A stretch of DNA of 64,000 nt, taken from Patescibacteria group bacterium (GTDB taxonomy: Bacteria > Patescibacteriota > Patescibacteriia > Magasanikbacterales > GWA2-37-8). The position numbers were made by a program, and so were the translations under genes. Below the pieces are notes generated by a model that was given only the letters and a program-made list of their open reading frames with translations, was not told the DNA's origin and did not search any database. This document shows, one piece after another, positions 33,795-49,108 of this stretch (position 1 is its first letter; the number at the start of each line of letters is the position of its first letter). Where the stretch lies: positions 576,907-640,906 of the forward strand of contig JBAZUP010000001.1 of the NCBI GenBank assembly GCA_041661385.1, read 5' to 3'.

Positions 33795-33870
33795 TGGGGT
33801 GGCCTACGGGAATCGAACCCGTACTGCGAGATCCACAATCTCGCGTGCTAACCGCTACACCAAGACCACC
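33795..33870 (-). tRNA. tRNA-His (anticodon GTG) with encoded G-1 and CCA
   Basis: Reverse complement G-GTGGTCT...GTGT-AGCGGTTA-GCAC...CGAGA-TTGTGGA-TCTCG...ACGGG-TTCGATT-CCCGT-AGGCCAC-C-CCA. Confidence 0.7.
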
Positions 33871-33916: not shown

Positions 33917-35047
33917 TTAATCAAGCCTTTGCTCCGAAATTGACCGATAAAGGTAATTTACTATCTCTTCATTACCGGACCGGAATTTTATCTTTTCATT
34001 TGCCATCAATATTTTTTTGCCATCTTCACCATCAATTACATCTTTTACCTTTTTTATAATTAATTCTGAATCCGTAAAATACCAACCCAGACCATTTTTT
34101 ACCACAAATTCCATTGTACCTTTTTCTTGCCCAAAAATAAAATGCGTAATAAGCAAAGGTTTCTGTAATAATAACGACTCATAAATAACCCCCGCGCCGG
34201 CCTTTGTAATAACCAAATCTGCTGCTCCCATCAACTCTGAAAGATTATCTACCCATCCCATTATCTTTGCTTCACTGTTATATTTTTGTTTTATACTGTG
34301 AAAGTTCTTCGCTTGACGCTTGTTAGTTCCACATACCGCAACCACTTCAGCGTTAATTTTATTTTTCAAAATCAGTTCGAATATTTTTTCTCCTTTTGGC
34401 AAACCATTTGCCCCACCAATCATCAAAATTATTTTTTTTCTTTCATTAATTTGATATTTATTTTTTACTTTCGCAACTTCCTCTGCCAATAAAATTTTTG
34501 TCGGGTGATTTACAATTTGATGAAATACAACTACCTTCTCCGGACTTACACCATTTGCCAATGCGATTTGTTTGGCAGCATCTGAATAAACAATATAGTG
34601 AAGGTTTTTATTATAAAACCAGATCGGCGAAACACTAAACGGATCAGTCACGATAATATATATCGGAATATCCATTTTTAAATCTTTTAAGGCGGAGCTA
34701 ATCGGTGAAACTAAAAAGTGCGTAGAAACAACCCCGCTCGGTTTATCAACCACCAGCCTGGCTTTAATTAAGGATTTTAAAAATAAATTAGTTAAAAAAT
34801 TTTCTAATTTTACTACTAACCTGCTGTTGTTTATAGTATAAATTACAGCATAAATCCAGGTTAAATTTTGTACCAGGAGAACATAACCGTTTTCAATAAT
34901 TAACCGAAAAAAAACTGAGGCCTGGTCGGCCATGTCAATTAATTTAGTCTCAGTTCCCGGATAAAGCCTTTTTAAATCCGATGCTAAGGCCTCCGCTGGA
35001 GCCTTATGTCCCCCTCCGGATTTGGCATAATATAGCCAAATTTTCAT
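33917..35047 (-). CDS. GT28-family glycosyltransferase (MGDG synthase/UgtP-like diacylglycerol glycosyltransferase)
   Basis: N-terminal SGGGH motif and a C-terminal MurG-like GT-B domain (ITKAGAGVIYESL). Confidence 0.6.
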   Translation of the reverse strand: MKIWLYYAKSGGGHKAPAEALASDLKRLYPGTETKLIDMADQASVFFRLIIENGYVLLVQNLTWIYAVIYTINNSRLVVKLENFLTNLFLKSLIKARLVVDKPSGVVSTHFLVSPISSALKDLKMDIPIYIIVTDPFSVSPIWFYNKNLHYIVYSDAAKQIALANGVSPEKVVVFHQIVNHPTKILLAEEVAKVKNKYQINERKKIILMIGGANGLPKGEKIFELILKNKINAEVVAVCGTNKRQAKNFHSIKQKYNSEAKIMGWVDNLSELMGAADLVITKAGAGVIYESLLLQKPLLITHFIFGQEKGTMEFVVKNGLGWYFTDSELIIKKVKDVIDGEDGKKILMANEKIKFRSGNEEIVNYLYRSISEQRLD

Positions 35048-35048
35048 A

Positions 35049-35504
35049 CTATTTATTAAGTGCCCTGTTCACAACATCATCAAGTGTTTGTCCGCCGCTG
35101 CCGGCATTGGTACCTAAATTTCTGCCGAGCGCCAAATTGGTTATCAAAATAGTTATTCCGTAAGCACTAATAATAATTAACAGACCAATAGTAGAATTTG
35201 CAATAGTTTTTTTTGATGAAGCAATTTGCTCGTCATTTCCCTGCGCCGTCATCCATTTGAAACCCGCAAACGCAATTAGCACAAATAAAACGGTACCGAC
35301 CAGAGATAAAAGCAATCTAATCATTTGTGAGGCGATTAGTCTTGGGTCTTTTGGTTCACTAAATCCAGCTCCAGTAGTTCCACCGGCGTGTCCAAGCTGA
35401 TTAAAAGATTCTGTGAGCCATCCTTGAGCGCTGGCTTTTGGTACCAATAGGAACAATGCTAACCATAGAACGGTTGTTATTAGAATTGTTTTCTTAAAAT
35501 TCAT
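35049..35504 (-). CDS. TrbC/VirB2-like pilin paralog 1 (FKWMTAQGNDEQI)
   Basis: Signal peptide, hydrophilic spacer, TM1, WMTAQGN-E loop, TM2, and a Gly/Asn-rich tail. Confidence 0.55.
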   Translation of the reverse strand: MNFKKTILITTVLWLALFLLVPKASAQGWLTESFNQLGHAGGTTGAGFSEPKDPRLIASQMIRLLLSLVGTVLFVLIAFAGFKWMTAQGNDEQIASSKKTIANSTIGLLIIISAYGITILITNLALGRNLGTNAGSGGQTLDDVVNRALNK

Positions 35505-35510
35505 ATGATT

Positions 35511-35903
35511 TTAAAATGATGTCGCTTGAGCAGTGTAAATCATGACAAAAGCAGTGATGCTATAAGCTGCGACGACTACAACCATACCAATTGTAGCGGT
35601 AGTAATAATATTTTTGGCTTTAGCTACTTGTTCTTCATTGCCCTGCGCAGTCATCCAAAGAAAACCAGAATAAACCATTAGAGCAAAGAAGATTGTACCA
35701 ACAAATGTTAAAACTATTTTAATTATCCGTCCGATTGTTTCAGAAAGGGTATATTGAGTTGTGTTTATACTAAAACCAGCATATCTCGCAATATTTTGCG
35801 CCGTTCCATTGTATCCTACCCCGATGTCTGGCGCGGCGAAAACCGGCACAATAAAAAATAATGAAATCATTAATGACAGAAAAAGGAAAAATTTATTTTT
35901 CAT
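35511..35903 (-). CDS. TrbC/VirB2-like pilin paralog 2 (FLWMTAQGNEEQV)
   Basis: Same architecture as paralog 1; 130 aa. Confidence 0.55.
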   Translation of the reverse strand: MKNKFFLFLSLMISLFFIVPVFAAPDIGVGYNGTAQNIARYAGFSINTTQYTLSETIGRIIKIVLTFVGTIFFALMVYSGFLWMTAQGNEEQVAKAKNIITTATIGMVVVVAAYSITAFVMIYTAQATSF

Positions 35904-35915
35904 ATTACATTAATT

Positions 35916-36416
35916 CTATGGAGCTGTCATACAACAAATCAAACTACTTGGGCAATCTGTTCCGGGCGCTTCAATTTCGAAATTCAGAGTACAGGAAGAT
36001 TTACATGTTCCACCATATTGACCTGTACAAGAAACGGATGTGTCACCGGTTGAACTGCTAATTCTTCCAGTTACAAAAGCGGTTATTGCATAGGCCGCCA
36101 TAACAACAACTAAACCAATTACGGCCTGTTGTATCATGCTTTTTGCATGGGATACTTTTTCTTCATTACCCTGCGCAGTCATCCAGGTAATTCCCGCCCA
36201 GACCGTTAACACCAAAAAAATTGTTCCAACTAACGATAACAGTCCGCTTATTACTGTTCCGACCGACATACTAAGATCGCCAGACAGTCCAACTTTACTT
36301 CCTTCGCCAACGGCAGATTTTAAATTATTTAATCCGTTTGTTAAAGGCGCGGCCTCAACAAAATTTTGAACTAGAAACAAACTACCGAGAGCCGCAATTA
36401 TTAAAACTTTTTTCAT
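35916..36416 (-). CDS. TrbC/VirB2-like pilin paralog 3 with a Cys-rich C-terminal tail (probable start at the internal MKKVLIIAAL)
   Basis: ITWMTAQGNEEKV motif and tail ...SCTGQYGGTCKSSCTLNFEIEAPGTDCPSSLICC. The ORF-track start at 36614 overlaps the upstream paralog. Confidence 0.5.
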   Translation of the reverse strand: MKKVLIIAALGSLFLVQNFVEAAPLTNGLNNLKSAVGEGSKVGLSGDLSMSVGTVISGLLSLVGTIFLVLTVWAGITWMTAQGNEEKVSHAKSMIQQAVIGLVVVMAAYAITAFVTGRISSSTGDTSVSCTGQYGGTCKSSCTLNFEIEAPGTDCPSSLICCMTAP

Positions 36417-36423
36417 ATAAAAA

Positions 36424-36975
36424 TTATTGACAAACACAAGTTGCAGAACCGTCTGCATCAACACAACTACCCGCTGTGTTGGACGCTGTAGTACAACTGC
36501 TATTAGTAACTCTGTTCGCACAAACCGCCTCACTACCGGAATTACAAACTGCCTGACTTGAGTTTCCCGTTTGTAAATTTGAAAAAATGAAATTTGTAAT
36601 TGCGTACGCAGCAAGAATCACAATAATTCCAATTGCTGCTGACTCGATGGTTTCTTTTGACTTGTCAATTTTTTCACTATTACCTCGCGCCGTCATCCAA
36701 TTAAAACCCGCATACAAAATCAAAAGGAAAAATACGATTCCAATTATCGACAAGACAATTTGAACAACCGAGCCAACCAACTCTGGTATAGCGTTTGGTC
36801 CGGCCTCAACTTCAGCAACCTTGGATGGCAAATAACAATCTTTTTTCCCCGAATCATTACAAGTCGCTTCTTGAGTCGCTTTCGTGCCATAATCAACGGC
36901 ATAACTATCTAAAGCCAATGAAAACCCGCCAAGCAAGACCAGAGCTAATAAGATTTTTCCAAAATTCTTTTTCAT
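36424..36975 (-). CDS. TrbC/VirB2-like pilin paralog 4 with a Cys-rich C-terminal tail (probable start at the internal MKKNFGKILL)
   Basis: FNWMTARGNSEKI motif and tail CNSGSEAVCANRVTNSSCTTASNTAGSCVDADGSATCVCQ. Confidence 0.5.
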   Translation of the reverse strand: MKKNFGKILLALVLLGGFSLALDSYAVDYGTKATQEATCNDSGKKDCYLPSKVAEVEAGPNAIPELVGSVVQIVLSIIGIVFFLLILYAGFNWMTARGNSEKIDKSKETIESAAIGIIVILAAYAITNFIFSNLQTGNSSQAVCNSGSEAVCANRVTNSSCTTASNTAGSCVDADGSATCVCQ

Positions 36976-37033
36976 ATATATTTTATCGAAATCGCGTCGT
37001 GAATCATTGATTGCTGCATTTTCAAACCCGCTT

Positions 37034-37435
37034 CTAATATGTTGCATTAACCAAATTCGTAATCACAAAATATGTAATCGAATATGAAACTAAAATTACC
37101 GCGAGTCCGATTACCCCGGTATATATTCGTCTTTTCGCTTGACTTACTTTTTCGTCGTTACCGGCCGAAGTCATCCATTCATATCCACCATACAACATTA
37201 TAACCAAAAAAATAATACCCACCATGCTGAGTGCAAGGCGGATCGTTTTGGCGGTAGTTATGCGAACATCCGTATCGGCAAAACCTGCAGTGCGCGGATA
37301 ACCAACACCAAGCGGATCAGCGCTGCCGGTCAGTAAAGATTGAGCAGAAACCGGCTGAAGATATACAGCTGCTCCGAATACAACCAAAAAAAGACCGATA
37401 ATTAGTCCCGTTATATTTTTATTTCGTAAATTCAT
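37034..37435 (-). CDS. TrbC/VirB2-like pilin paralog 5 (YEWMTSAGNDEKV)
   Basis: Same architecture; 133 aa. Confidence 0.55.
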   Translation of the reverse strand: MNLRNKNITGLIIGLFLVVFGAAVYLQPVSAQSLLTGSADPLGVGYPRTAGFADTDVRITTAKTIRLALSMVGIIFLVIMLYGGYEWMTSAGNDEKVSQAKRRIYTGVIGLAVILVSYSITYFVITNLVNATY

Positions 37436-37514
37436 AGCAGTTGTGTTTTCTATCTGCTAAAAGACACAATCCACTACCCAATCCGCGCAATTGCGCGGAT
37501 TGGGAGTTGATCTA

Positions 37515-37895
37515 CTAAGCTGTAGCTGTAACCAATTGATTGACGACAAAGTTTGCAAGACCGTAAGCTGATAGAATTATAGCGAGACCGATAACGGCCG
37601 CGATCATAATTTTCTTAGCTGTACCGACTTGTTCGTCGTTACCACCTGCAGTCATCCAAAGGAAGCCTGCGTAAAGCATCAATACTACTGTTACGATACC
37701 AAGGAACGCCATGGCGGCGCGAATGATTCTGGCGACAGTCGTACGGATGTCGGTTGTTGATAATCCGAGAGCCGGAGTAAGTTCACTGGTATTCAATAGC
37801 TCTGTTGGTGTGAGAGATTGAGCTAAAGCTGGGGTGAAAGTGAACAAGTTCAAACCGACCGCGAATATTGTTGCTAGTTTCTGAAAAGTTTTCAC
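37515..37895 (-). CDS. TrbC/VirB2-like pilin paralog 6 (FLWMTAGGNDEQV); probable GTG start after a GGAGG RBS
   Basis: The signal peptide begins at VKTFQKLATIFAVG. The upstream part of the 166-aa ORF-track frame has no signal-peptide character. Confidence 0.5.
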   Translation of the reverse strand: MKTFQKLATIFAVGLNLFTFTPALAQSLTPTELLNTSELTPALGLSTTDIRTTVARIIRAAMAFLGIVTVVLMLYAGFLWMTAGGNDEQVGTAKKIMIAAVIGLAIILSAYGLANFVVNQLVTATA

Positions 37896-38052
37896 AATTT
37901 CACCTCCCTTCCAAAATAGTTTTCTGACATATTTTATATTTTGACTCCTTCTCTGTCCATCACAAGCAGTTATACTTTTTAGTGAACTAAAACGTATAAT
38001 CCGCTTCCCAACCATGGTTTTATCAAAGGTTGGGAGCAGTTTAATTTTATTT

Positions 38053-38439
38053 TTATGGAGCAGTCGTGGCTGTCACTAATGAATTAATGACAAAATTCGC
38101 AATACCATACGCGGACAAAATAATTGCGAGACCGATGATGCCGGAGAAGATCCATTTTTTGGCTTCGCCGACTTTTTCATCGTTACCGCCAGCAGTCATC
38201 CAGGTGAAACCTCCGATAAGAATGATTACTACAGCGATTATACCAAGCATTCCCATGGCAACGCGAATTATGCGAGCAATGGTAATACGGATATCTGAGT
38301 CAGAAAGACCGGTAGCTGTTTGAATTCCTGTTGGCATTAATTCTGAACTTTGCAAAACAGTTTGCGCGAGTACTGGACTTGCTGCCAGCATGGTGGAACC
38401 CATTGCAATTACCGTGACAAATTTTTGTATTTTATTCAT
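38053..38439 (-). CDS. TrbC/VirB2-like pilin paralog 7 (FTWMTAGGNDEKV)
   Basis: Same architecture; 128 aa. Confidence 0.55.
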   Translation of the reverse strand: MNKIQKFVTVIAMGSTMLAASPVLAQTVLQSSELMPTGIQTATGLSDSDIRITIARIIRVAMGMLGIIAVVIILIGGFTWMTAGGNDEKVGEAKKWIFSGIIGLAIILSAYGIANFVINSLVTATTAP

Positions 38440-38534
38440 AGTTTCACCCCCTTTCGACTTTGAAATTTCGACATACTATATAAATCGACTGCGTATATTA
38501 TATCACACCTCGTTTTCAGGTGCAATTTATTAGC

Positions 38535-38924
38535 CTAAACCGATCCAGTAGACAATACTGTGGTCAATGTATTTACCAAAATATAGCTAGAAAGCACTAA
38601 TACTACACCAATTATTGCCCACAACATCGTGCTAGTACCTTTCTCAACTTTCTCAGTATTCCCAGCCGATGTCATCCATTGAAAACCACCCCAAATCAGC
38701 ATTAAAAGCGCGAGCGACCCCAAGATTCCAAGCGCTCCTTTAATGATTGTTCCGATGATAACAGTTGCATCAACTTTACTGCCAAGTGGATTATCAAGGC
38801 AAACATCCCCCACTTTTGGTACATAACCGGTTTTAGGATTTGCCACACAGGTTGCTGCTGAAACTGAAGAAAAATTCATAAACAGAACAAGTCCCGACAT
38901 TAATAACAATAAAGCTTTTTTCAT
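38535..38924 (-). CDS. TrbC/VirB2-like pilin paralog 8 (FQWMTSAGNTEKV)
   Basis: Same architecture; 129 aa. Confidence 0.55.
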   Translation of the reverse strand: MKKALLLLMSGLVLFMNFSSVSAATCVANPKTGYVPKVGDVCLDNPLGSKVDATVIIGTIIKGALGILGSLALLMLIWGGFQWMTSAGNTEKVEKGTSTMLWAIIGVVLVLSSYILVNTLTTVLSTGSV

Positions 38925-38934
38925 ATTAAACTTA

Positions 38935-39333
38935 CTACTTCAATTTCAAAAACACAAAATCAATTGCCATATAACTTACAGACATTACCGAAACCCCTAG
39001 CGCCGCCCAAATAATTATATTCTTGGCTGTCGTAATTTTTTCAGAATTTCCACTGGCTGTCATCCAAATTACACCGCCATAAACTACGAGCAAAAACATT
39101 ATCGCCCCCATAAACATCATGAGAGCTTTAATTGCAAGACCGATTATCTCTTGCCCGCTTAAAATTTTATTTTCTTTATTTTTTGGAAGTTGATTTAATG
39201 CTTGCGCATCAGCTTTTATTTTAGTCATCACTTTTTCGGCATCTTGATTTGAAGTGGCAGCCCCCGCAAATGCCGGTGAAAAAATCGCCAGCGAACAAAT
39301 AAACAATAAAATAATTTTTTTTAATTTATTCAT
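38935..39333 (-). CDS. TrbC/VirB2-like pilin paralog 9 (VIWMTASGNSEKI)
   Basis: Same architecture; 132 aa. Confidence 0.55.
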   Translation of the reverse strand: MNKLKKIILLFICSLAIFSPAFAGAATSNQDAEKVMTKIKADAQALNQLPKNKENKILSGQEIIGLAIKALMMFMGAIMFLLVVYGGVIWMTASGNSEKITTAKNIIIWAALGVSVMSVSYMAIDFVFLKLK

Positions 39334-39337
39334 ACAA

Positions 39338-39943
39338 CTACTGATTTAATTTAAACTGCGTTTCAATACCTACCGCATTACCGACAAAAATTACAATTGC
39401 ATAACCGCCGAAAGCGATGATTAGACCCAGCACTGCCGCGACAATAATACCCTTACCCTGCGCGACTTTTTCGGCATTTCCTTGCGAAAGGATCAATACA
39501 AAACCACCATAAACAAAATACAATAAAGTAACACCGCCAATAATACCAAATAAATAACGAATGATGTTAAACATTAAAATTAAAAAAACCGTTATGTCTC
39601 TGCATTCACCAACTACATTTGTTTCGTTTACACACGCCGGAAGAAATGCCCCCCATTTTTGTCCTACGGTTTTATCGGGCGCTGTAGCTGTAGTGTTAGC
39701 TAAATTATTTTTTGCACTTACGCAATCATTTACTGTCGTCATCCAAGCACAACTGGTGTATTTTGCATTTTGAGAATTGTTAAAATCACAAACGTCTTGA
39801 GTTGCCACATCTAAACAGGTGGTGTCAACTGCATTTTTTCCAACACAGAAACATTGGGCAGCTGCATTTGCTTCTTTTTTGAAAATAAAAACAGAAACAA
39901 GAATTAGCGCTCCAAATATAAATATCTGTGTATTTTTTTTCAC
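39338..39943 (-). CDS. TrbC/VirB2-like pilin paralog 10 with a Cys-rich N-terminal domain (divergent loop LSQGNAEKV)
   Basis: Signal peptide, an 8-Cys region of about 100 aa, then the TM - SQGNAEKV - TM core. Confidence 0.45.
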   Translation of the reverse strand: MKKNTQIFIFGALILVSVFIFKKEANAAAQCFCVGKNAVDTTCLDVATQDVCDFNNSQNAKYTSCAWMTTVNDCVSAKNNLANTTATAPDKTVGQKWGAFLPACVNETNVVGECRDITVFLILMFNIIRYLFGIIGGVTLLYFVYGGFVLILSQGNAEKVAQGKGIIVAAVLGLIIAFGGYAIVIFVGNAVGIETQFKLNQ

Positions 39944-39947
39944 AAAA

Positions 39948-41372: not shown

Positions 41373-41378
41373 AATTTT

Positions 41379-42299
41379 CTAAATTACGCTTTTTAAAAAT
41401 TTTCTAAACTCAGCAGAAAGATTTTTATCACGCAGTGCGAAATCTACATTTGCTTTCAAATACCCAAGTTTGGAGCCGGTATCATAATAAACACCCTCTA
41501 CTTTACGCGCGTAAACATTTCTTTTTTGTAAAAGTTTAAAAATCGCATCAACCAGCCATAATTCGCCGCCTTTTCCTAATTTGGTTGTTTCAAGCGCTTC
41601 AAAAATATCCGGAGTTAACACATACCCGCCAAGACTCGCGAGGCGTGACGGAGCTTTTTCCGGACCCGGCTTTTCAACAATCCCCTTAACTTTCAAAACT
41701 CCATCTTCAACTTCTTTCCCATCAATAATACCATATTTACCGGTTCCTTCATCATTTACTTCGTACGCAGTTAAAACCGGATCACCGTACTTTTCAAAAG
41801 TTTCGATCAGTTGCGCCAATTGCGGTTTTTTGGGAGTGTAAAAAAATTCATCGCCCCACATCACCGCGAAAGGTTCATCTCCCACGATATCTTTGGCGCA
41901 CAATACCGGGGTTCCATTACCGTACGGACCTCGCTGACGGATAAAAATAAAATTCGCGAGATCGGCAATTTTCTTTACCTCTTCGGCCATTTCTTCCTTT
42001 CCTTGTTTTTTAAGTAAATTTACTAATTCGTAATTTGGACTAAAATGATCTTCCACGGCGCGCTTGCTGGGACCCGTTACCAAAATAATATCGGTTATTC
42101 CCGACCGCACCGCGTCTTCTACTACATATTGAATAATAGGTTTATCTACTACCGGCAGCATTTCTTTGGGCTGGGCTTTGGTGGCGGGTAAAAAACGAGT
42201 TCCAAGGCCGGCAACTGGAATTACTAACTTCTTAACTTTCGACATATTTTTCAGGGTCTTAACTCCTTTTACTTTGCTTTCAGTATAACAAATTACCAA
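41379..42299 (-). CDS. galU: UTP--glucose-1-phosphate uridylyltransferase
   Basis: VIPVAGLGTRFLPATKAQPKEMLPVVDKP signature. Confidence 0.85.
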   Translation of the reverse strand: MVICYTESKVKGVKTLKNMSKVKKLVIPVAGLGTRFLPATKAQPKEMLPVVDKPIIQYVVEDAVRSGITDIILVTGPSKRAVEDHFSPNYELVNLLKKQGKEEMAEEVKKIADLANFIFIRQRGPYGNGTPVLCAKDIVGDEPFAVMWGDEFFYTPKKPQLAQLIETFEKYGDPVLTAYEVNDEGTGKYGIIDGKEVEDGVLKVKGIVEKPGPEKAPSRLASLGGYVLTPDIFEALETTKLGKGGELWLVDAIFKLLQKRNVYARKVEGVYYDTGSKLGYLKANVDFALRDKNLSAEFRKFLKSVI

Positions 42300-42317
42300 G
42301 ACTATTTCAATTTAAAA

Positions 42318-45300
42318 CTACAAAACCGGACCGTTCAGCTTACAATCAACAGTACAAGATTCTCCGGGCTGTCCATTTCTTGCAGAGCCCAGATCACACT
42401 CTTCGGTCGGCGCTACGAGTCCGTCTCCGCAAACCGATACGCAATGGGTTGTTGCTTTTACAAAGCCATTCAAAGTAAGTTTGAAATTTGATTGAGTAGT
42501 ATGGCGTTCCGCGTGATAAAACGCGATTTCATAAGCGCCGTTCACAGTCAAACCAAGAGTTGTTGCCATTGCGGCATTCAGGGTTACACTTCCATTTACG
42601 CGCGGGTGTAAACCACCGATATCTAATGCAAGCTTTCCATTGATAAAGACCCATACATCATCATCGCCTGAAAAACTTAAAACCTCACCACCCTTATATG
42701 TAAACCAATAATGAATTTCTGTCGTGAAAGCGAAGTTGTGATTTAAGCCACCGCCTACTGGCGACATACCCCAAGAAGCAGGGGTTGGAATTGGATCTAA
42801 AGGAAAGAAGCCAAGTTGGGTAGTATTTGTTGTATTGCCAAGCGGAGTCAAACTACTGTCATATTCATATGTTACCGGGCTACTGTTAATCAAATTTAGG
42901 GTTATTGAATCATTAATAGTTTTATTTACACCCGGGGTATCAACATACCACTGCGCAAATTGTGAAGCTCCAGTTAACTGGGTTCCACAACCGTTGGATG
43001 GGTTCGCTGTAGAGCGTAAAAATACCGGATTACCACTTACAAGCTGATTTTGAATCAACCCGAGTGACGCCTGGCCGCAACCATAACTTTCAAAATCTGC
43101 ATGACCACCAGTTTCCCCGGCACCCTTAAAATCACGTAAAGTCATCGGTACGTTTAAAGTGCTCGGTGGAGTTTCTGTTATGTTTGTACAAGTTATACCG
43201 GTAATAGTTTCCGAAGTACAAGTTGCCGAACAACCGTCATTTGAAATTAAATTTCCGTCGTCACACTGTTCACCGGGTTCAATAATTCCATCGCCACAAA
43301 TCGCAATACAGGTACCACTGGTACAATTTGGACCACCACCACCCGACGAAGAAATTGTGACATTGGTGGCCCCGGTTACCGATCCAGAAACAGCTGATAC
43401 AACTGCGGTGCCCACCGACCCTGGCGGGGTATAAAGTCCAGCGGCAGAAATTGTGCCGTTAGTACTTGACCAAGTAAAGACTGGTGGCGGAACCATGCCA
43501 TTCCCAAATTGATCAGTTGAAGTTGCGGTGAATTGCTGAGGTGAACCACCCGCAACAACCGTAGGCGAAATCGGCATCACATCGATCACCGACAAAATCC
43601 GATCAACTGTTATTGATACAGCTGGTGAAGTTACGGTATTTCCGCTTTGATCCCGAATTACTACCTGGAATTGATAGGAACCGGCCGCATAAAAAGTAAC
43701 TCCATTATTTTTTGCCGCGTTGGTATTGTTGGTAACACTAAAAGTTGGATCGGGCGCCCCACTAGGTTTAGAAGTGATATTCCATGTATAGGTGAGACTT
43801 GTTTCGCCGCCGTCATCAGCTCCTAAAACTGAAAGGGTACTCGTTGTTTTTGTTACCGTCGAAGGATTTGCAGCTGCCGGAGTCGCGATAGTTGGCGCTT
43901 GAGAGCCTGGTCCGGCACTTTTAATTTCTACTCCGGCCATATTATAACCACCGGTAGCCGGCGCAGTTCTTGAAAAAACTACATTGCCTGAACTGGCAGT
44001 CGGACTTGTAATTTCTTGAACCCAAACTTGCTCGCTATTGCCGGTATTCCAATTATCAAGAAGTGTTTGAGTAAAAGTTGTAGCACTGCCGTTATAATTA
44101 ATATCCCAACCAGCGGCAAAAACTAATGACTTGGCGCTCGACGCGTTAATCGTCAAAGAAGCTGTTGAACCACTTGAGCCGTTAGACCTGTTAAACGTAC
44201 CCTGGGTTGTTGCGGCACCATCTAAAATCATAATTTTCAGAAAATCACGAGTCGCAGATGTAGAAAGTCGCGTTCGCACATTAGTCAAATTAGCACTTGG
44301 CACACCTTTATAAATAGCCACCGAACTCCCGCTCTGAACATTTGCAACCGAGCCAATTCTGGTCCATGTCAGTGTTCCGCCGCTTATTGTTGTATTGCTA
44401 AGACTAATACTTGCTGAGGTTCTGCTGGCGCCTATAAAAGCTAATACCAACTGATTGGCATTAACACTATAAACATCACTGGTCGGATTATCGCCAGTTA
44501 CTTTGGTTAAAGTTGTCGCAACAGTTGGTGCGGTCGCCGCGGCAGTAACTGACACCGTGACAGTTCCAGTAATACCACCCGAAGTAGCGCTAACTATTTT
44601 TGTTCCGATATCATTTGGCGTATAAAGACCGCCGGAAGTAATTGAACCTAAGTCCGCAGACCAGCTATAAGTAATGGGCGATGTTATCGGCTGGCCAAAC
44701 TGATCCATGGCTGTTGCGGCAAATTGTTGCGTTAAATCGACTCCCATTGTTACTGGAGACGGCGATACTGTCACTCCCGTTAAAGTCTGATTAACTGTTA
44801 CCGATAGTACTGGTGAAACAACTGAAAGCGAGTTTGCATCAGTGATTGTAACTTGAAATTGATAAGTCCCGGCCATTGAATATGTGACTGTAGTATTTTT
44901 TGCGGCATTAGAATTATTGAGATTAAAAACTGGATCAGCTGCTCCGCCGGGTTTTGAAATAATACTCCAGGTATATCGAAGATTCGCTTCACCGCCATCA
45001 TCATGTCCCAAAACTGAAAGAGCGCCCGTGGTACCACTTACAGACGCAGGAGTTGATATTGGCAATGAAGCAATCGTTGGTAAGGCGTTACCGTTACTGG
45101 TAATTGTAACAGACGCGAGAGCTATTACGCCGCCACTCACCGCGAGTACCGTTGCCGAACCGGCGGAATCTGGCGCGGTATAAAGCCCATTGGCGGAAAT
45201 TTTTCCATTTACGTCTCCACCGAGTACGCTCCAAACGATATTTTTTATGGTCGCATTCGCCGGCAATGCCGTTGCCGTAAATTGCTGAGAAGTATTCGCC

Positions 45301-46667
45301 GGAATTGTCGCGCTAGCCGGAGTAATATCAATACTTAAAACCGGAACAAAATCATCCGTTGTGCTAGTTGAACGAACTTCCTCCCAGCTAATTAAATTAT
45401 ATGATGACCCGACTGGAAAACCGGCCGGCGGACGGTAGGTAAGATTAGCATCGTAAAAATAATTAGTATTCTCAAAACCAGAACACACTGAACCACATCC
45501 TAAATATTTCATTCCACCGGCATAACTACCCACTCTTGATCCGTAAAAATTTTGAGTACTAATAATATTTTTTGTGCTGGCACCGACCTCTAAATATTTT
45601 GGTCTAAATATTGAACCGTTTACCGTAACCATCGCGGCATTAACTTCCATCGGATCAGGAATGTTGTAAGGAAAAACTATATTCTGATTAGTCATAAGAC
45701 CAATCACATTAGTTCCATCTTTGGCCAAATATACTAAGTTCCCATTTACAATCATGTCGTTATTAATTGTCGCAACCGTCGCCCGACCCTTCACCACGCC
45801 ATTTACCCAAACTGTGTCATCAACAAAAATATAACTACTGGTTGGAATTTGATAATTTGTTACTGGACCAAAATCTACCGCATCATAACAGGCATCGGAA
45901 TAACAAGTCGGCGCAGAAATAACTTTTGATACATCAACCGTACCATCATTTTTAAATGATAATTGATAACCATAAGCTCCGGAAGCCGGCAGATATGGCC
46001 AAACCAATCCGTTTGCCTGAGATTTAGTTTTTATTTCCTCCAATTTTACCTGCACACTAGCCAAATCTTTTACTGGCACTGGGTATAGCCAATAACTTCT
46101 CGGACCACCCGTTCCGGAAATTTCTATCGCGCTTGAAAGCGGCGCGTCACTTACCCCATCAAAATATATTCTCCCATTAGAGTGAGTCTTGCCATGGATA
46201 TAAGCAGTTGAGGAAAAAATTATATCGCTATCTATCAAAAATGCGTAATCGGATATTGCCGGAAAACCCAGACGAATTTTTAACGTGCGCTTCGAGTCCG
46301 GCTGACTTGCGAGCCAGCCAGTTGAATACATTGTTACAATTGTCGAACCTCCTTCTGGCGGAACAATTGTTAAGGTGTAATAACCAATTGTTTTACCTTC
46401 TTTATTTTTATATTCATGCGTATATGGCCCGGGCACCCCAGTTCCGTCCTGATAATCCTCTTTGTTGTGCGCAAGATGCCAACGATAATAAGCAATTCCT
46501 GACTCAGCAATTTGCAAAGCTTGCTCACGATTTTTCTTATATATCGAAGCGCGATTTTCAGAAACCGCATAAGAAATTAACCCAAGAATCGCAAAAAGAC
46601 TTGCTCCTCCGAGCACAATGACAATAATTAGAACGTTTCCTTTAATACCTAATTTTGATTTAAACAT
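42318..46667 (-). CDS. Giant cell-surface protein (1449 aa): N-terminal TM anchor, Ig-like repeats, Myxococcus-type Cys-rich repeats, C-terminal fibro-slime domain
   Basis: CGDGIIEPGEQCDDGNLISNDGCSATC and CGDGLVAPTEECDLG match the myxo Cys-repeat pattern. GDDDVWVFINGKLALDIGGLH matches the fibro-slime/PA14-like motif. Shares Ig-like repeats (TSTLSVLGADDGGE..LTYTW) with the 17471-22024 protein. Confidence 0.65.
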   Translation of the reverse strand: MFKSKLGIKGNVLIIVIVLGGASLFAILGLISYAVSENRASIYKKNREQALQIAESGIAYYRWHLAHNKEDYQDGTGVPGPYTHEYKNKEGKTIGYYTLTIVPPEGGSTIVTMYSTGWLASQPDSKRTLKIRLGFPAISDYAFLIDSDIIFSSTAYIHGKTHSNGRIYFDGVSDAPLSSAIEISGTGGPRSYWLYPVPVKDLASVQVKLEEIKTKSQANGLVWPYLPASGAYGYQLSFKNDGTVDVSKVISAPTCYSDACYDAVDFGPVTNYQIPTSSYIFVDDTVWVNGVVKGRATVATINNDMIVNGNLVYLAKDGTNVIGLMTNQNIVFPYNIPDPMEVNAAMVTVNGSIFRPKYLEVGASTKNIISTQNFYGSRVGSYAGGMKYLGCGSVCSGFENTNYFYDANLTYRPPAGFPVGSSYNLISWEEVRSTSTTDDFVPVLSIDITPASATIPANTSQQFTATALPANATIKNIVWSVLGGDVNGKISANGLYTAPDSAGSATVLAVSGGVIALASVTITSNGNALPTIASLPISTPASVSGTTGALSVLGHDDGGEANLRYTWSIISKPGGAADPVFNLNNSNAAKNTTVTYSMAGTYQFQVTITDANSLSVVSPVLSVTVNQTLTGVTVSPSPVTMGVDLTQQFAATAMDQFGQPITSPITYSWSADLGSITSGGLYTPNDIGTKIVSATSGGITGTVTVSVTAAATAPTVATTLTKVTGDNPTSDVYSVNANQLVLAFIGASRTSASISLSNTTISGGTLTWTRIGSVANVQSGSSVAIYKGVPSANLTNVRTRLSTSATRDFLKIMILDGAATTQGTFNRSNGSSGSTASLTINASSAKSLVFAAGWDINYNGSATTFTQTLLDNWNTGNSEQVWVQEITSPTASSGNVVFSRTAPATGGYNMAGVEIKSAGPGSQAPTIATPAAANPSTVTKTTSTLSVLGADDGGETSLTYTWNITSKPSGAPDPTFSVTNNTNAAKNNGVTFYAAGSYQFQVVIRDQSGNTVTSPAVSITVDRILSVIDVMPISPTVVAGGSPQQFTATSTDQFGNGMVPPPVFTWSSTNGTISAAGLYTPPGSVGTAVVSAVSGSVTGATNVTISSSGGGGPNCTSGTCIAICGDGIIEPGEQCDDGNLISNDGCSATCTSETITGITCTNITETPPSTLNVPMTLRDFKGAGETGGHADFESYGCGQASLGLIQNQLVSGNPVFLRSTANPSNGCGTQLTGASQFAQWYVDTPGVNKTINDSITLNLINSSPVTYEYDSSLTPLGNTTNTTQLGFFPLDPIPTPASWGMSPVGGGLNHNFAFTTEIHYWFTYKGGEVLSFSGDDDVWVFINGKLALDIGGLHPRVNGSVTLNAAMATTLGLTVNGAYEIAFYHAERHTTQSNFKLTLNGFVKATTHCVSVCGDGLVAPTEECDLGSARNGQPGESCTVDCKLNGPVL

Positions 46668-46685
46668 ATTAATTTTTTATTACGT

Positions 46686-47291
46686 TCAATTATCCTTTAA
46701 ATTTCTAATAACCGCTTTCGATTCGGTCGTAAAAGAATTCGGTGAGTTTAACGGATTTTTATCAATCGTAACTTTAATGCCAACCATTTTTATATTACCA
46801 AGTTCAACCGGCTGAACAAGCGGACTTTCGCTTCCTGTGTAAGCCGCATCATAATAAGTAAATATTGTTGTAGTCGGAACTACGCTGTGTAACATTTCCG
46901 TTATTACTTCCGTGCCCACATCGTAAACTAACGGATTGCCGCTTGGTTCAATAGTACCTTTTTTTAATAATGTTCCATCTAAAAAATATCTGACCCGATC
47001 GCGGGTTGCTTTGGCACCAGGATTTGAAAAAAAGATTATTTCCGTACTGCTCGCTTCCGCGATTGGATATGAGCCGATGCTCGAATAAGTAGCCCCGCGA
47101 ATTTCATTTACAAAATCATCCAAAACCTTACGGGTCTCACTTTGAGTCGACAGCTGTTCGGTAATTACATCCCCTTTTCTTGGAAACATGAATATAAACA
47201 ACTCCACCGCTGCTCCGGAAATTAACGTAAAAATAGCGATTGAAACAACTATCTCAATTAAAGTAACTCCTTTGTAGTTTACTCGAACCAT
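46686..47291 (-). CDS. Type IV pilin / pseudopilin (prepilin N-terminal GVTLIEIVV)
   Basis: Class III signal: basic leader, G, VTLIE, then a hydrophobic helix. Confidence 0.7.
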   Translation of the reverse strand: MVRVNYKGVTLIEIVVSIAIFTLISGAAVELFIFMFPRKGDVITEQLSTQSETRKVLDDFVNEIRGATYSSIGSYPIAEASSTEIIFFSNPGAKATRDRVRYFLDGTLLKKGTIEPSGNPLVYDVGTEVITEMLHSVVPTTTIFTYYDAAYTGSESPLVQPVELGNIKMVGIKVTIDKNPLNSPNSFTTESKAVIRNLKDN

Positions 47292-47293
47292 AT

Positions 47294-49108
47294 TTATATA
47301 CTTCTATACAGAACCACTGTTGAACTTGATTGGCCGCTAACATCGACAGAGGAAGACGTCGTATCATAACCAACTGCCGAAACATCTAAGGTATAAGTTC
47401 CGGAAGATATTCCGCTATAAAATACCTGTCCGGGCGGGGTACAACCACTTGTAAAGGTCATAGCAAAATCGGAAAAAATCGGCGTAAAATTCTGATCAGC
47501 AGTGCTAAGAAAAACCTTATACCTAAAATATCGATAGGTTTGTCCGCCAGTATTAACGGTCGTAGTTACACTCGAATAATAAGTAGACGCTGTGCCGTCT
47601 GGACCGACAAAATTATTTATCGCCGGGTCAGTACTGCTGTTACTCATCGCTAATTGCAACAATATCGAATCGCTTCCGGTTTCGATCGGCTGAGATTCTG
47701 AAGTATATAAAACATTTAACAAATTAACTTTTTTACCAATATCAAAAATAGCGGATTCAAGATAACCGCCCCCTACATATTGACCCGCGAACTTAGCTAA
47801 AGAAATATTTCCGGGTGAAGTAAGAGTGTCAATCATTGAGTCGCCCGCATATATATTTGGAAATGATTCGGAATAATTTTCTGAACTAATCCCTCCTGAC
47901 CAATCAGTTTGTGACAAATTTCCATAATTTGTTTTTAAAGTTCCATTAAATCCGGCTTTACTCAATTTAACAGTCGCATCTGATAGCGGTAAATTATTAC
48001 TATTATCTAATACTTTTACTAAAAGTGAGTTTGAAACATGCGGCGACAAAACCAACGTTAAATCTTGGTGGCCGCCCGCAACAATTTCAATTGGCGTAAT
48101 TGGAATCGAGCCGGCCAAATCGTGGCCTCCTAAAACTGAAAAATTATATAAATCAAACTCCAAATCATTTACGTTCAAACTTCCATCCGCTCCGGTTTGT
48201 AAATTTTGCGAATATTTATACACTCCCGGTGTTCCAATTAATTTATTTCCATTCATTACAAAAGATGTGCTCCCGACCGGTTCACAAGATTCATTAATGG
48301 TATGAACGGTTAAAGAACTTAGTTGATCAATTGAAAAAAAAGTATCAGAAATTTGTTGAGTTGAAACCGTTATTGGCAGCTTGGTGGGGTTTGGATTAAG
48401 AGTACTTGTAGCGGAAGTATAATCGCTTGAAAAGCCTTGTTTATCCACAGTAATACTGTAAGCCATCGTACCAGTTGGAGTATCAATAACGCGCAAATAC
48501 CCATCTTTATCCGTGACATCATCAATAACGATATTCGGATCCGTCTTGGTGTTAACGAGGTGAACTTTAGCATCGGCCACCGGATTATTATGAGAATCAG
48601 TTACATAAATAAATATCGCGCCATTTACAGAATTACCTTCCAAATCTTTTGGTGGAATTATTGTGCTTACAGTTGCCTCAGTCGGGTGCTGGCAACTTAT
48701 GCAAGCAGCCGTAATTTCAACCAACTTATAGTCGGCCGGCGCGAGGTCGTTTGGAGTCCCGCCGAGCGTTCCGTCAAATGGATCATCAATACTTCTAACC
48801 ACGATAGTTACTAAAAATGGAATACCGTTTCGATAAGTTGTTGTAGTGTGAGGAAGCACGCCAACCGGCAATCCATTTATAATACCAACATTATTAAAAG
48901 AAAGATTGCGAGCAACCTCTAAATATTCATCAAGCAAGGCGGTTTCAATAATATTGATACGCGATTTATAAACCGCTTTTATTACCATTTGAAAGGCGCC
49001 ATAAACTCCAACTGCAAACAACGCAAAAACAGCGGTCGATACAATGACTTCAATTAGAGTAAAGCCTGCGCTCCCTTTTAAATTTTTCATGGCGGTATTA
49101 TACCACAA
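47294..49108 (-). CDS. Large type IV pilin-like protein (604 aa; prepilin N-terminal GFTLIEVIV)
   Basis: Class III signal peptide, then a large beta-rich globular region. Confidence 0.65.
   Translation of the reverse strand: MWYNTAMKNLKGSAGFTLIEVIVSTAVFALFAVGVYGAFQMVIKAVYKSRINIIETALLDEYLEVARNLSFNNVGIINGLPVGVLPHTTTTYRNGIPFLVTIVVRSIDDPFDGTLGGTPNDLAPADYKLVEITAACISCQHPTEATVSTIIPPKDLEGNSVNGAIFIYVTDSHNNPVADAKVHLVNTKTDPNIVIDDVTDKDGYLRVIDTPTGTMAYSITVDKQGFSSDYTSATSTLNPNPTKLPITVSTQQISDTFFSIDQLSSLTVHTINESCEPVGSTSFVMNGNKLIGTPGVYKYSQNLQTGADGSLNVNDLEFDLYNFSVLGGHDLAGSIPITPIEIVAGGHQDLTLVLSPHVSNSLLVKVLDNSNNLPLSDATVKLSKAGFNGTLKTNYGNLSQTDWSGGISSENYSESFPNIYAGDSMIDTLTSPGNISLAKFAGQYVGGGYLESAIFDIGKKVNLLNVLYTSESQPIETGSDSILLQLAMSNSSTDPAINNFVGPDGTASTYYSSVTTTVNTGGQTYRYFRYKVFLSTADQNFTPIFSDFAMTFTSGCTPPGQVFYSGISSGTYTLDVSAVGYDTTSSSVDVSGQSSSTVVLYRSI

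Follow-up and report, generated by a model that had tools for sequence, protein, structure and literature searches.

Three adjacent genes of an ultrasmall Magasanikbacteria-class Patescibacterium raise the question of how a giant adhesin is displayed by the cell. Two of them encode type IV prepilins and the third a 1449-aa protein with fibro-slime and Cys-rich domains. The initial annotation had proposed that the pilins present or anchor the adhesin, within a 15-kb block of cell-surface genes. We analysed the surrounding stretch of 64,000 nucleotides (the window) and asked how the adhesin is related to the pilins, and whether the block is a single system.

Organization of the locus

All genes of the block are carried on the minus strand, and the coordinates and the gene and domain names of the initial annotation were all confirmed. 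The features are as follows.

32658-33014, minus strand: eleventh T4SS_pilin paralogue, outside the block (PF18895, 27.4 bits)
33795-33869: tRNA-His, one block boundary
33917-35047, minus strand: GT28-type glycolipid glycosyltransferase (MGDG_synth 48.3 bits, cut-off 25; Glyco_tran_28_C 47.2 bits, cut-off 22)
35049-39943, minus strand: ten tandem VirB2/TrbC-like 'T4SS_pilin' paralogues (PF18895, 24.9-47.7 bits)
39948-41372, minus strand: family-1 solute-binding protein (SBP_bac_8 80.3 bits, SBP_bac_1 78.2 bits)
41379-42299, minus strand: GalU, UTP-glucose-1-phosphate uridylyltransferase (TIGR01099 331 bits, cut-off 326.8)
42318-46667, minus strand: 1449-aa protein, third gene of the trio (Big_2, two K319L-like PKD, two DUF4215, fibro-slime, PA14)
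42318-43343, minus strand: its distal lectin-like head, residues 1109-1449 plus stop codon (TIGR02148, TIGR02232, DUF4215, PA14)
43344-45368, minus strand: its stalk, residues 434-1108 (Big_2 and K319L-like PKD matches)
45369-46667, minus strand: its predicted ComZ/GspK-like tip-pilin module, residues 1-433 (homologues, AF2, Foldseek)
46686-47291, minus strand: small type IV prepilin, 201 aa, G/VTLIE, second gene of the trio (N_methyl, TIGR02532)
47294-49108, minus strand: modular type IV prepilin, 604 aa, first gene of the trio (N_methyl, TIGR02532, CarboxypepD_reg)
49179-49261: tRNA-Leu, the other block boundary

Intergenic gaps are at most 95 nt each across the whole block, and exactly 2 nt and then 18 nt among the trio genes. 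A scan of the intergenic gaps found no terminator-like site on the coding strand between block genes; the promoter/terminator scan of the block was no different from that of shuffled sequence. The 1449-aa ORF is not an assembly artefact, because it recurs in an independent assembly and four orthologues of 1445-1457 aa exist. Neighbours in the window include a ComM-like Mg-chelatase, RuvB, an EEP nuclease-family protein and an LTD-PKD-OB protein.

Two prepilins precede the 1449-aa protein

The larger prepilin carries a class III signal (G/FTLIE) and matched N_methyl (27.1 bits; cut-off 21.2), TIGR02532 (23.3 bits; cut-off 16.3) and, in two stretches, CarboxypepD_reg (48.6 bits). The 604-aa ORF opens with TTG; the gene and its motif stand as annotated, but its length is probably 598 aa, starting at an ATG six codons in (49090), which agrees with P0146, an identical database entry. 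An AF2 model (pLDDT 85.3) predicted a helix (residues 12-61), a sheet (82-145) and then a chain of Ig/CnaB-like beta-sandwiches, for which the best Foldseek matches were the CnaB-type pilus proteins TIE, PitA, SpaA and BcpA. We found 667 homologues, and the best 120 of these 667 are mostly ~597 aa long. Weak gspJ/gspI-type matches were confined to the N-terminal helix and fell far under cut-off (TIGR01711: 22.7 bits against 64.85). The 201-aa prepilin passed the same N_methyl and TIGR02532 cut-offs with 26.1 and 18.3 bits, and a homologue of ~205 aa sits between the other two trio genes in nearly all related loci.

The N-terminus of the 1449-aa protein resembles a tip pilin

Residues 1-433 of the 1449-aa protein had 980 homologues; the best 120 stand alone and are 440-491 aa long. 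The region belongs to a large family of Patescibacteria that lacks annotation (2,215 cluster representatives at 50% identity) and whose usual form stands alone at ~455 aa; we refer to it as the cap family. The AF2 model of this region (pLDDT 84.6, pTM 0.79) begins with helix alpha1 (5-67) and a four-strand sheet, continues with a solenoid (143-404) and closes with a last strand (424-431), so that a beta-solenoid is predicted to be inserted between the pilin sheet and its last strand. When the model was compared with the PDB by Foldseek, ComZ (6QVI) was the top and sole strong match (E 2.7e-9; global TM-scores low at 0.27-0.30, rmsd high), followed by ice-binding beta-solenoids. A cap-family profile run against PDB sequences recovered neither ComZ nor GspK.

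The signal of the cap module is non-canonical (KG/NVLII, without Glu5). Among the homologues, Gly at -1, ahead of the hydrophobic stretch, is nearly invariant and Glu is missing at +5; the Asn at +1 of the module is uncommon in prepilins. The PilX_N profile scored 11.1 bits, under its cut-off of 25.5. As modelled, residues 1-433 are a ComZ/GspK-like pilin subunit. Since the adhesin itself supplies this subunit with its first 433 residues, the 1449-aa protein is most likely a modular tip pilin with an adhesin grafted onto its C-terminus, and the proposal that the pilins present or anchor a separate adhesin was not supported. The graft begins where the short homologues end, 1-3 residues past an NLISWEEV motif.

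A stalk and a lectin-like head form the C-terminal extension

The stalk consists, in order, of Big_2, PKD, Big_2, an unassigned domain of ~200 aa, PKD and Big_2. Its PKD-Big_2 pair is duplicated (46% identity in the internal repeat) and recurs in a 1517-aa protein of the window (17471-22024) at 45-48% identity. In the head, a fibro-slime (PA14-like) domain lies between two Cys-rich DUF4215/myxo repeats. The domain searches bore out the annotated fibro-slime domain, the two myxo-type Cys repeats and both prepilin motifs above curated cut-offs; on the 1449-aa protein, Fibro_Slime (TIGR02148) reached 96.7 bits (cut-off 45), myxo_disulf_rpt (TIGR02232) 58.4 bits (cut-off 20.8), DUF4215 55.8 bits in two stretches (cut-off 27) and PA14 27.9 bits (cut-off 24). 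A sequence search recovered no solved fibro-slime structure.

Apart from this genome, the ~1,000-aa graft was found only in four metagenomic relatives (61-78% identity). Between orthologues, the stalk is the least conserved section (39-79%), and within the extension the head is conserved best (67-85% for fibro-slime, 77-85% for the first DUF4215), to the same degree as the pilin core. Cap-family members elsewhere carry Laminin_G_3, beta-propeller, fn3 or Fib_succ_major modules. The combination of fibro-slime and Cys repeats, described at first as unusual, is indeed rare, with five orthologues known, but it is one case of the general habit of the cap family to carry lectin-like or adhesion modules.

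The trio is conserved, and its neighbours are separable

A lack of co-localisation in related genomes had been set beforehand as a possible refutation of the annotation; the genes proved to be co-localised. Among 69 related species loci with enough upstream sequence, an automatic count gave the complete trio in 66; in two of the three misses (L008 and L029) the gene listing shows both pilins, raising the count to ~68 of 69. The three-gene unit is real, with the cap gene almost always third, after the two prepilin genes, and it is nearly universal in several Patescibacteria classes. No gene for PilB, C, D, M, N, O or T or for a major pilin was found within the 64-kb window, so the link to a pilus rests here on homologous loci of other lineages. 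One of these reads pilB-pilC-[trio]-pilM-pilN-pilO (L072), and in another (L079) the trio adjoins a major pilin, PilM, PilC and PilB. In these other lineages the trio lies within pilB-pilC...pilM-pilO, without GalU, the solute-binding protein or the array.

In Magasanikbacteria, the order pilin-pilin-cap-GalU-SBP-VirB2 array-GT28 recurs, with GalU directly downstream of the cap gene. Of 60 loci that extend far enough downstream, ~38 keep these genes in the same order and orientation, at protein identities of only 39-49%. The order of genes over the 15 kb is kept across Magasanikbacteria, yet it splits into separable modules.

All annotated neighbours were recovered by profile scores. GalU probably starts at an internal ATG near 42245. 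The solute-binding protein has a signal peptide and a Cys and is a probable lipoprotein on these sequence features; with no ABC permease gene next to it, it is an orphan, and in some relatives (L029-L052) it is embedded inside the array. Eight of the ten array genes exceeded the PF18895 cut-off (26.6) and two were slightly under it at 24.9 bits; every paralogue combines a Sec signal with a variable exposed part, two TM helices and a WMTAxGNxEKV loop. Neither virB4 nor any other T4SS gene was found within the 64-kb window. The GT28 protein resembles MGDG or diglucosyl-DAG synthases (NF010135: 129 bits, well under the cut-off of 500), and its position is conserved while its strand varies, being opposite in many relatives.

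Discussion

Our findings make it likely that the genes from 49108 to 42318 encode the minor-pilin complex (priming and tip) of a type IV pilus, with a glycan-binding adhesin displayed by the cap. Prepilin peptidase would process the ~598-aa prepilin, which bears an Ig-like stalk, and the 201-aa prepilin, and both would assemble with the third, GspK/ComZ-like subunit. Because Glu5 is missing and a bulky beta-solenoid is present, this subunit could be placed only at the very tip, by analogy with ComZ and GspK. Sequence and orthologues show that in this clade the cap subunit is extended exactly at its C-terminus by ~1,000 residues, a presumably flexible Big_2/PKD stalk with a disulfide-braced fibro-slime/PA14 lectin-like head. 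Pilus extension may present the head tens of nanometres from the cell, where it would bind a polysaccharide of a host cell or of particulate matter, and retraction would then draw the cell onto its target. In the model the extension exits at the pilin-domain end of the cap and not at the distal solenoid end, which makes the geometry at the tip uncertain and counts against this reading.

The predicted cap is a recognisable relative of the known 'modular pilin' adhesins, with the addition of a ~1,000-residue stalk that ends in a lectin-like head. In modular pilins an effector module is joined by a linker to the pilin module's C-terminus for display at the tip, as in PilB (vWA) and PilC (lectin) of Streptococcus sanguinis (PMC8179133). 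The census of Raynaud et al. (2021) lists pilin+PF13620, of which the 604-aa pilin is a case, and pilin+PA14 within the 15 commonest architectures, with CPR represented (PMC8179133). That census demanded a recognisable IPR012902 N-methyl motif, which the 1449-aa protein lacks, so it would escape it. The carrier of the adhesin, moreover, is a ComZ-like cap already holding a solenoid insertion, so that the protein is modular twice over.

Other relatives share parts of this design. ComZ of Thermus thermophilus is a GspK-like tip pilin with a solenoid inserted before the last strand and ice-binding-like relatives (PMC6561018). Like the cap, it combines a pilin helix and sheet with such a solenoid, has a non-canonical signal and is encoded among minor pilins; it differs in length (554 aa against ~455 aa for the cap family), has no detectable sequence similarity to that family and lacks the 1,000-aa adhesin. 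Unlike the Thermus host of ComZ, Patescibacteria have no outer membrane. The GspK-GspI-GspJ set, like the PilX/FimU-PilVWX core minor pilins, is also a three-gene set capped by a large Glu5-less subunit, but GspK inserts an alpha-domain instead of a solenoid, and the trio of the relatives stands among T4P genes (PilM, PilO, MshEN-PilB), not T2SS genes. [quoted passage not shown] They too are patescibacterial minor pilins and the largest in their loci; their accessory domains are a beta-jelly roll and a seven-bladed propeller, far shorter than the multi-domain extension described here, and no ComZ-like solenoid is reported for them (PMC11623550 never mentions ComZ). In Fibrobacter succinogenes, fibro-slime proteins are implicated, along with type IV pilins, in cellulose adhesion (PMC4668043). 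They are likewise large surface proteins and have the TIGR02148 (PA14-like) domain, but are separate outer-membrane or extracellular proteins with no pilin fusion.

A separate adhesin, held non-covalently by a short two-pilin fibre in the manner of PilY1, would fit the tight packing of the three genes, and minor pilins that present PilY1-type adhesins are known (cited in PMC11623550 and PMC8179133). We nevertheless regard it as very improbable, as the 1449-aa protein has its own predicted pilin-like alpha1 helix and sheet, has no PilY1-type propeller or other docking domain, and its first 433 residues form a conserved stand-alone family at the same gene position even without the adhesin part. 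Hardly more probable is an ordinary membrane-anchored adhesin with a mere signal-anchor helix and pilin neighbours by coincidence. The PilX_N score under threshold and the missing canonical G-F-T-L-I-E motif would agree with this, and large Ig-rich surface proteins such as the 1517-aa protein are common in CPR; against it stand the near-universal trio inside T4P operons, the ComZ-like fold, a helix of ~60 residues in place of a 20-residue anchor, and the conserved Gly at -1.

It is possible, if clearly less likely than a tip adhesin, that the trio serves primarily as DNA receptor at the tip of a competence (DNA-uptake) pilus, like ComZ/PilA2 in Thermus, the extension doing no more than tethering this DNA-capturing tip to cells or polysaccharide matrices in which extracellular DNA is retained; the two readings overlap and are compatible. 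The sole strong structural relative is a DNA-binding competence pilin, Patescibacteria rely on scavenged nucleotides, and the ComM-like, RuvB, EEP nuclease-family and LTD-PKD-OB proteins are encoded in the window. A similar fold does not carry its ligand over, however, and without a sequence-level alignment there is no way to locate ComZ's DNA-binding lysines on the cap. The DNA-related neighbours are housekeeping genes that are not kept beside the trio in distant lineages, and T4P-2 pilin mutants of TM7x, pilX2 included, had no competence defect (PMC11623550). It is unlikely that all genes of the 15-kb block work together as one system. GalU and GT28 could glycosylate the pilins or make a glycolipid that the filament requires, or the solute-binding and VirB2-like proteins could aid the pilus in host contact; the conserved order, the short gaps free of terminator-like sites and the interleaving of SBP and array genes agree with this. 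Yet the trio occurs without these neighbours outside Magasanikbacteria, many relatives have GT28 the other way round, GalU and glycolipid synthases are envelope enzymes of a general kind, and the promoter/terminator scan gave no signal above shuffled sequence. The synteny of the annotated cell-surface block is conserved, but a single system is not demonstrated. We regard GalU, the solute-binding protein, the array and GT28 as lineage-specific conserved neighbours that serve other envelope functions, not as demonstrated parts of the machine.

VirB2-like arrays of Patescibacteria are already published, in the available part of the preprint as 2-11 divergent PF18895/TrbC-like tandem genes with an average identity of 25% and a maximum of 54% (bioRxiv 10.1101/2025.01.22.634366). 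The array described here, with 10 + 1 genes, a mean pairwise identity of 30% and a maximum of 54.8%, is close to these values; in the same part of that source we found no mention of a fixed place beside a minor-pilin trio, GalU and SBP. The eleventh paralogue lies beyond tRNA-His and tRNA-Arg, and relatives hold a T4SS_pilin copy at the same site, just before S15.

A co-oriented block of cell-surface genes

The genes between 33917 and 49108 all lie on the minus strand with intergenic gaps of at most 95 nt, and the run is flanked by tRNA-His (33795-33869) and tRNA-Leu (49179-49261). The initial annotation had described a nearly contiguous minus-strand block; curated models bore out every gene and domain that it called there, and its 2-nt and 18-nt gaps between the last three genes were exact. 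A scan of the block returned 59 promoter-like sites (45.5±5.3 in shuffled sequence) and 19 terminator-like sites (16.7±4.1 in shuffled sequence), so that both counts matched the shuffled controls. We rejected a tRNA-bounded genomic island, as the same order, including the flanking S15, NYN, PNPase and RuvB genes, is kept across the lineage.

Features of the block and its surroundings (coordinates, strand, description)
32658-33014, -, eleventh T4SS_pilin (PF18895) copy, outside the block
33917-35047, -, GT28 gene; MGDG_synth (PF06925) 48.3 bits, Glyco_tran_28_C (PF04101) 47.2 bits
35049-39943, -, VirB2-like array of ten tandem T4SS_pilin (PF18895) genes; eight above 26.6 bits, two at 24.9
39948-41372, -, solute-binding protein (SBP), family 1
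41379-42299, -, GalU; TIGR01099 331 bits (cut-off 326.8), full model length
42318-46667, -, 1449-aa giant protein
46686-47291, -, 201-aa prepilin; G/VTLIE; PF07963 26.1 bits, TIGR02532 18.3 bits
47294-49108, -, 604-aa prepilin; G/FTLIE; PF07963 27.1 bits, TIGR02532 23.3 bits
49451-50269, -, EEP-family nuclease/phosphatase
50339-51370, +, RuvB
55734-57245, -, ComM-like Mg-chelatase ATPase
58902-61457, +, secreted protein of 851 aa; three lamin-tail domains, one PKD domain, OB fold

Two prepilins and a third protein without the prepilin motif

Prepilins were recognised by a glycine at -1, a hydrophobic residue at +1, a glutamate at +5 and a hydrophobic helix, with cut-offs of 21.2 bits for PF07963 and 16.3 bits for TIGR02532. 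The 604-aa and the 201-aa protein both carry such a class III signal peptide and pass both models, in agreement with the two prepilin signals read from the sequence in the initial annotation. The 604-aa ORF probably starts six codons downstream, which would give the 598 aa of P0146, an identical protein in the database. The structure prediction that had been proposed for this protein yielded a model (pLDDT 85.3) in which a pilin head leads into a row of CnaB/Ig-like sandwiches. A search of PDB sequences with the 201-aa pilin gave no informative match.

The 1449-aa protein matched neither PF07963 nor TIGR02532 and lacks the prepilin motif. Its N-terminus reads KG/NVLIIVIV, without Glu5, and PilX_N (PF14341) reached 11.1 bits (E 0.42, residues 34-59 only), below the threshold of 25.5; one homologue, P0111, has a precomputed PF14341 match. 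Throughout the family described below, the glycine before the hydrophobic segment is nearly invariant and no glutamate occurs at +5. A glycine at -1 without Glu5 characterises cap subunits, GspK and PilX among them.

A ComZ-like module belongs to a large unannotated family

With residues 1-433 of the giant protein as query we retrieved 980 proteins. The best 120 of these are 440-491 aa long with 42-49% identity; they are unnamed or 'hypothetical' in their sources, and all but one are without a Pfam domain. An exhaustive profile search extended the family to 2,215 cluster representatives at 50% identity, 372 of them below 1e-30, and relatives are encoded in at least 470 species-level genomes. 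The family is without a model in Pfam and NCBIfam. The homologues come almost exclusively from metagenome-assembled genomes of Candidatus Magasanikbacteria and other Patescibacteria, and P0123, which is partial but identical to the giant protein, is itself labelled Candidatus Magasanikbacteria. The short homologues stop 1-3 residues past an NLISWEEV motif and the window protein continues exactly there; the giant protein therefore consists of a conserved ~455-aa module and a C-terminal graft of ~1,016 aa.

An AlphaFold2 model of the module (pLDDT 84.6, pTM 0.79) comprises a 63-residue N-terminal helix (residues 5-67), a four-stranded sheet (82-134), a beta-solenoid (143-404) and a final strand (424-431). 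In a Foldseek search of the PDB, its sole strong match was ComZ of Thermus thermophilus (6QVI; E 2.7e-9, probability 1.0), with ice-binding beta-solenoids next; the global TM-score between module and ComZ is low (~0.3). A profile built from 47 family members found no ComZ or GspK chain among PDB sequences at E up to 10. In ComZ, a solenoid interrupts a GspK-like pilin domain ahead of its final strand, the nearest relatives of this solenoid are ice-binding proteins, and ComZ has been argued to be able to sit at the pilus tip only (PMC6561018). The predicted module has the corresponding parts of a ComZ-like tip pilin, namely a long alpha1, a pilin sheet and a solenoid before the last strand, in addition to the match to 6QVI.

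Family members carry diverse additional domains. C-terminal add-ons include three Fib_succ_major and five fn3 domains in the 1774-aa P0309; fn3 also occurs in P0343 and Big_2 in P0127. Insertions contain Laminin_G_3 (P0298 and P0291) or a DUF5122 beta-propeller (P0341), and four further proteins (P0326, P0346, P0368, P0351) have large insertions without a Pfam match. As these add-ons differ between members, the ComZ-like family behaves as a carrier of interchangeable adhesion modules.

The C-terminal extension forms a stalk and a lectin-like head

The fibro-slime domain and the myxo Cys repeats named in the initial annotation were both recovered well above their cut-offs: TIGR02148 scored 96.7 bits (cut-off 45) at residues 1310-1398, where it overlaps a PA14 match of 27.9 bits (cut-off 24), and the Cys-rich repeats scored 58.4 bits with TIGR02232 (cut-off 20.8) and 55.8 bits with DUF4215 (PF13948; cut-off 27). 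Two DUF4215 stretches flank the fibro-slime domain. The protein also contains Big_2 and two K319L-type PKD domains in the stalk; the PKD-Big_2 pair is duplicated within it at 46% identity. The same module pair is present in a 1517-aa giant surface protein with a Sec-type signal (17471-22024, minus strand) at 45-48%, pointing to the shuffling of domains between surface proteins encoded in the same genome.

Extended caps are absent from all 80 species representatives, in which the cap measures 426-500 aa. The full architecture is found in four metagenomic orthologues of 1445-1457 aa (P0121, 78% identity; P0124, 68%; P0122, 67%; P0125, 61%), and the two that were looked up, P0121 and P0124, have the same gene order as the window. 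When the orthologues are compared, conservation of the fibro-slime domain (67-85%) and of the first Cys repeat (77-85%) is similar to that of the pilin core (67-81%), and the stalk domains are more divergent (39-79%). We rejected a fusion created by misassembly or a frameshift: the 1449-aa ORF recurs in an independent assembly, the four orthologues have nearly the same length, and the junction falls exactly at the C-terminus of the family. Nor did we find support for a recent horizontal acquisition of the extension, whose GC3 is 0.342 compared with 0.31-0.38 in neighbouring genes, in line with the genome; the 1517-aa protein that shares its stalk modules does so at only 45-48%.

The PA14/fibro-slime head may bind carbohydrate, as its family annotation suggests together with the literature on Fibrobacter, in which fibro-slime proteins act with pilins in cellulose adhesion (PMC4668043). 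A search of PDB sequences with the head returned no solved fibro-slime homologue. Its sole match was that of the first Cys-rich repeat (residues 1122-1160; within 42321-43343) to human pappalysin-1/pappalysin-2 (PAPP-A; E ~5e-4).

The trio is conserved and linked to type IV pilus operons in relatives

We examined 80 species-level and six metagenomic loci, whose ORFs were labelled by BLASTP against the window proteins. Co-localisation in related genomes, the check that had been set for the genes of the block, was evident for the trio: the order large prepilin, ~205-aa prepilin, ComZ-like gene was complete in 66 of the 69 loci with enough upstream sequence by automatic count, and inspection of the genes revealed both pilins in two of the three exceptions (L008, L029), giving ~68/69. 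These loci were drawn from Magasanik-, Paceibacter-, Gottesman-, Doudna-, Kuenen- and Staskawicz-bacteria, with identities of 32-49%. Between lineages, the length of the large first prepilin ranges from ~430 to 1151 aa (L057, L062, L068, L071-L073, L075, L085). In locus L072 it measures 938 aa and holds a Laminin_G_3 lectin domain, so that both large members of the trio are module carriers.

In L072 the trio lies between pilB (T2SSE and MshEN domains) and pilC (T2SSF) on one side and pilM (PilM_2), a pilN-sized gene and pilO on the other; L079 has the order 150-aa major pilin, PilM, trio, PilC (T2SSF), PilB (T2SSE). Other pilins together with assembly machinery, the setting of a minor-pilin operon, are thus found in homologous loci and not in the window, where Pfam scans of the larger ORFs returned no type IV pilus machinery gene, PilD included. 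We tie the trio to the type IV pilus because distant lineages embed it in type IV pilus operons.

GalU, solute-binding protein, VirB2-like array and glycosyltransferase

Nine of the 11 T4SS_pilin paralogues score 27.4-47.7 bits and two score 24.9 (cut-off 26.6), and all have a WMTAxGNxEKV loop between two hydrophobic segments. Pairwise identity in the array averages 30% with a maximum of 54.8%, values in keeping with published Patescibacteria VirB2 arrays (2-11 genes, average 25%, maximum 54%; bioRxiv 10.1101/2025.01.22.634366). Pfam scans of the larger ORFs in the window found no VirB4- or VirB6-type domain, and a type IV secretion system was not recognisable within it. Three paralogues (35916-36413, 36424-36975 and 39338-39943, minus strand) have extra Cys-rich segments, two as C-terminal tails (7-8 Cys) and one as an N-terminal region, which suggests that some members of the array expose knobs stabilised by disulfides.

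The GT28 gene passes the superfamily domains and fails the diglucosyl-diacylglycerol synthase equivalog NF010135 (129 bits, cut-off 500); we therefore describe its product as a GT28 glycolipid-type transferase. Judged from sequence, GalU and this transferase, which resembles MGDG/diglucosyl-DAG synthases, plausibly make a glucolipid.

The order cap, GalU, SBP, VirB2-like array, GT28, one VirB2-like gene, S15, NYN, PNPase is retained in Magasanikbacteria-type loci (~38 of the 60 loci with enough downstream sequence) and absent in more distant lineages. GT28 is co-oriented with the array in the window, L005 and L021 and inverted in most other Magasanikbacteria loci (L001, L003, L007 and others); this points to a local inversion of a gene whose position is kept. 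In one sub-lineage (L029-L052, e.g. L031, L035, L044) the SBP gene is interleaved with VirB2-like array genes, and some array ORFs of 300-590 aa are VirB2-like modules fused to large extra domains.

Discussion

Our findings show a conserved trio of genes, linked to pilus machinery in relatives, for two genuine prepilins and a cap protein with the ComZ fold; in the window clade, the cap continues into an Ig-like stalk and then a conserved fibro-slime/PA14 head, which Cys-rich repeats brace. A type IV pilus tip complex whose cap displays a glycan-binding adhesin is the most likely explanation. By analogy with GspI-J-K and ComZ-PilA2, the three proteins would form a priming and tip complex with the cap at the pilus apex; the head could then bind polysaccharide on a host cell or particle, and pilus retraction would pull the cell to its target. 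Patescibacteria have no outer membrane, and therefore no secretin would limit the size of so bulky a tip. Precedents exist for several of these elements. In TM7x, both PilX1 and PilX2 combine a non-canonical signal with a lectin-like domain at the C-terminus, and host binding requires PilX2 (PMC11623550). The modular pilins of S. sanguinis are well described, and in a pilin census pilin+PF13620 and pilin+PA14 were among the commonest architectures, with CPR representatives included (PMC8179133).

A role of the conserved ComZ-like module as competence receptor, which is compatible with the tip-adhesin model, seems to us possible but rather unlikely. The DNA-related genes that flank the trio could be tied to DNA uptake or could be coincidental. 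We give little credence to the whole 15-kb block being a single system. Its order is kept among Magasanikbacteria-type loci; because this order is missing in distant lineages, the strand of GT28 varies and the promoter and terminator counts matched shuffled sequence, we read the block as a lineage-specific conserved synteny of several envelope modules. Similarly improbable, in our judgement, is a broader proposal in two parts. The unannotated ComZ-like solenoid protein would cap and prime type IV pili throughout Patescibacteria and act as their DNA receptor as well, serving as an evolutionary docking platform for host-specific lectins grafted by each lineage and, in the window clade, coupling glycan-mediated host docking to DNA capture at one tip. 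In Magasanikbacteria, the trio, GalU, the orphan SBP, the VirB2-like array and the glycolipid glycosyltransferase would together form a single host-interaction supercluster joining type IV pili to an essential T4SS-like apparatus.

A tip complex with an adhesive cap is an extension of known principles (modular pilins, ComZ, TM7x PilX) and no new principle; modular pilins, a ComZ-type cap, PilX-type adhesins in Patescibacteria and VirB2 arrays are all known components. What is new is the assignment of a large, hitherto unannotated protein family of Patescibacteria to a ComZ-like type and to the fixed third place in a minor-pilin trio, the doubly modular cap with its inserted solenoid and grafted 1,000-aa lectin stalk, and the fixed position of the tip trio beside GalU, SBP and VirB2 array in Magasanikbacteria. 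A full-text literature search for 'ComZ' with 'candidate phyla radiation' yielded no paper that appeared related by its title and abstract. A pilin census based on the N-methyl motif would miss proteins of this family altogether. The trio assigns a probable role, that of the third, capping member of a minor-pilin set, to a 'hypothetical' family of ~2,200 clusters, whose variable insertions and extensions (PA14/fibro-slime, Laminin_G, propeller, Fib_succ_major, fn3) could mark what each lineage binds. The locus offers a concrete candidate for a host- or substrate-recognition molecule, a putative pilus-tip lectin with a conserved head and a variable stalk, as a target for glycan-array, pull-down and cryo-ET studies and as a marker for host prediction.

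Further observations

The window also contains a 23S/5S rRNA locus and housekeeping genes. The 23S rRNA match (22309-25821, minus strand) covers 3,513 nt compared with a 2,925-nt model, which implies ~590 nt of inserted sequence, and the 5S rRNA (22098-22204, minus strand) follows directly; no 16S gene was found within the window. The 23S insertions could be introns or expansion segments, both often reported in CPR. Genes of the ATP-citrate-lyase/citryl-CoA type adjoin malic enzyme at 7683-13162 (minus strand), with ATP-grasp_2+Citrate_bind, CoA_binding+Ligase_CoA and a 242-aa Citrate_synt C-terminal fragment; such a citrate-lyase-type carbon-metabolism set is unexpected in a reduced Patescibacteria genome. 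A GH18 (chitinase-like) glycoside hydrolase at 3299-4537 (plus strand) may be relevant to polysaccharides that the organism encounters. Many GTDB-representative genomes with a clearly patescibacterial locus (L007, L012, L013, L036 and others) are titled 'uncultured Gammaproteobacteria', 'Pseudomonadales' or 'Saccharibacteria' bacterium, which appear to be placeholder or wrong taxon labels.
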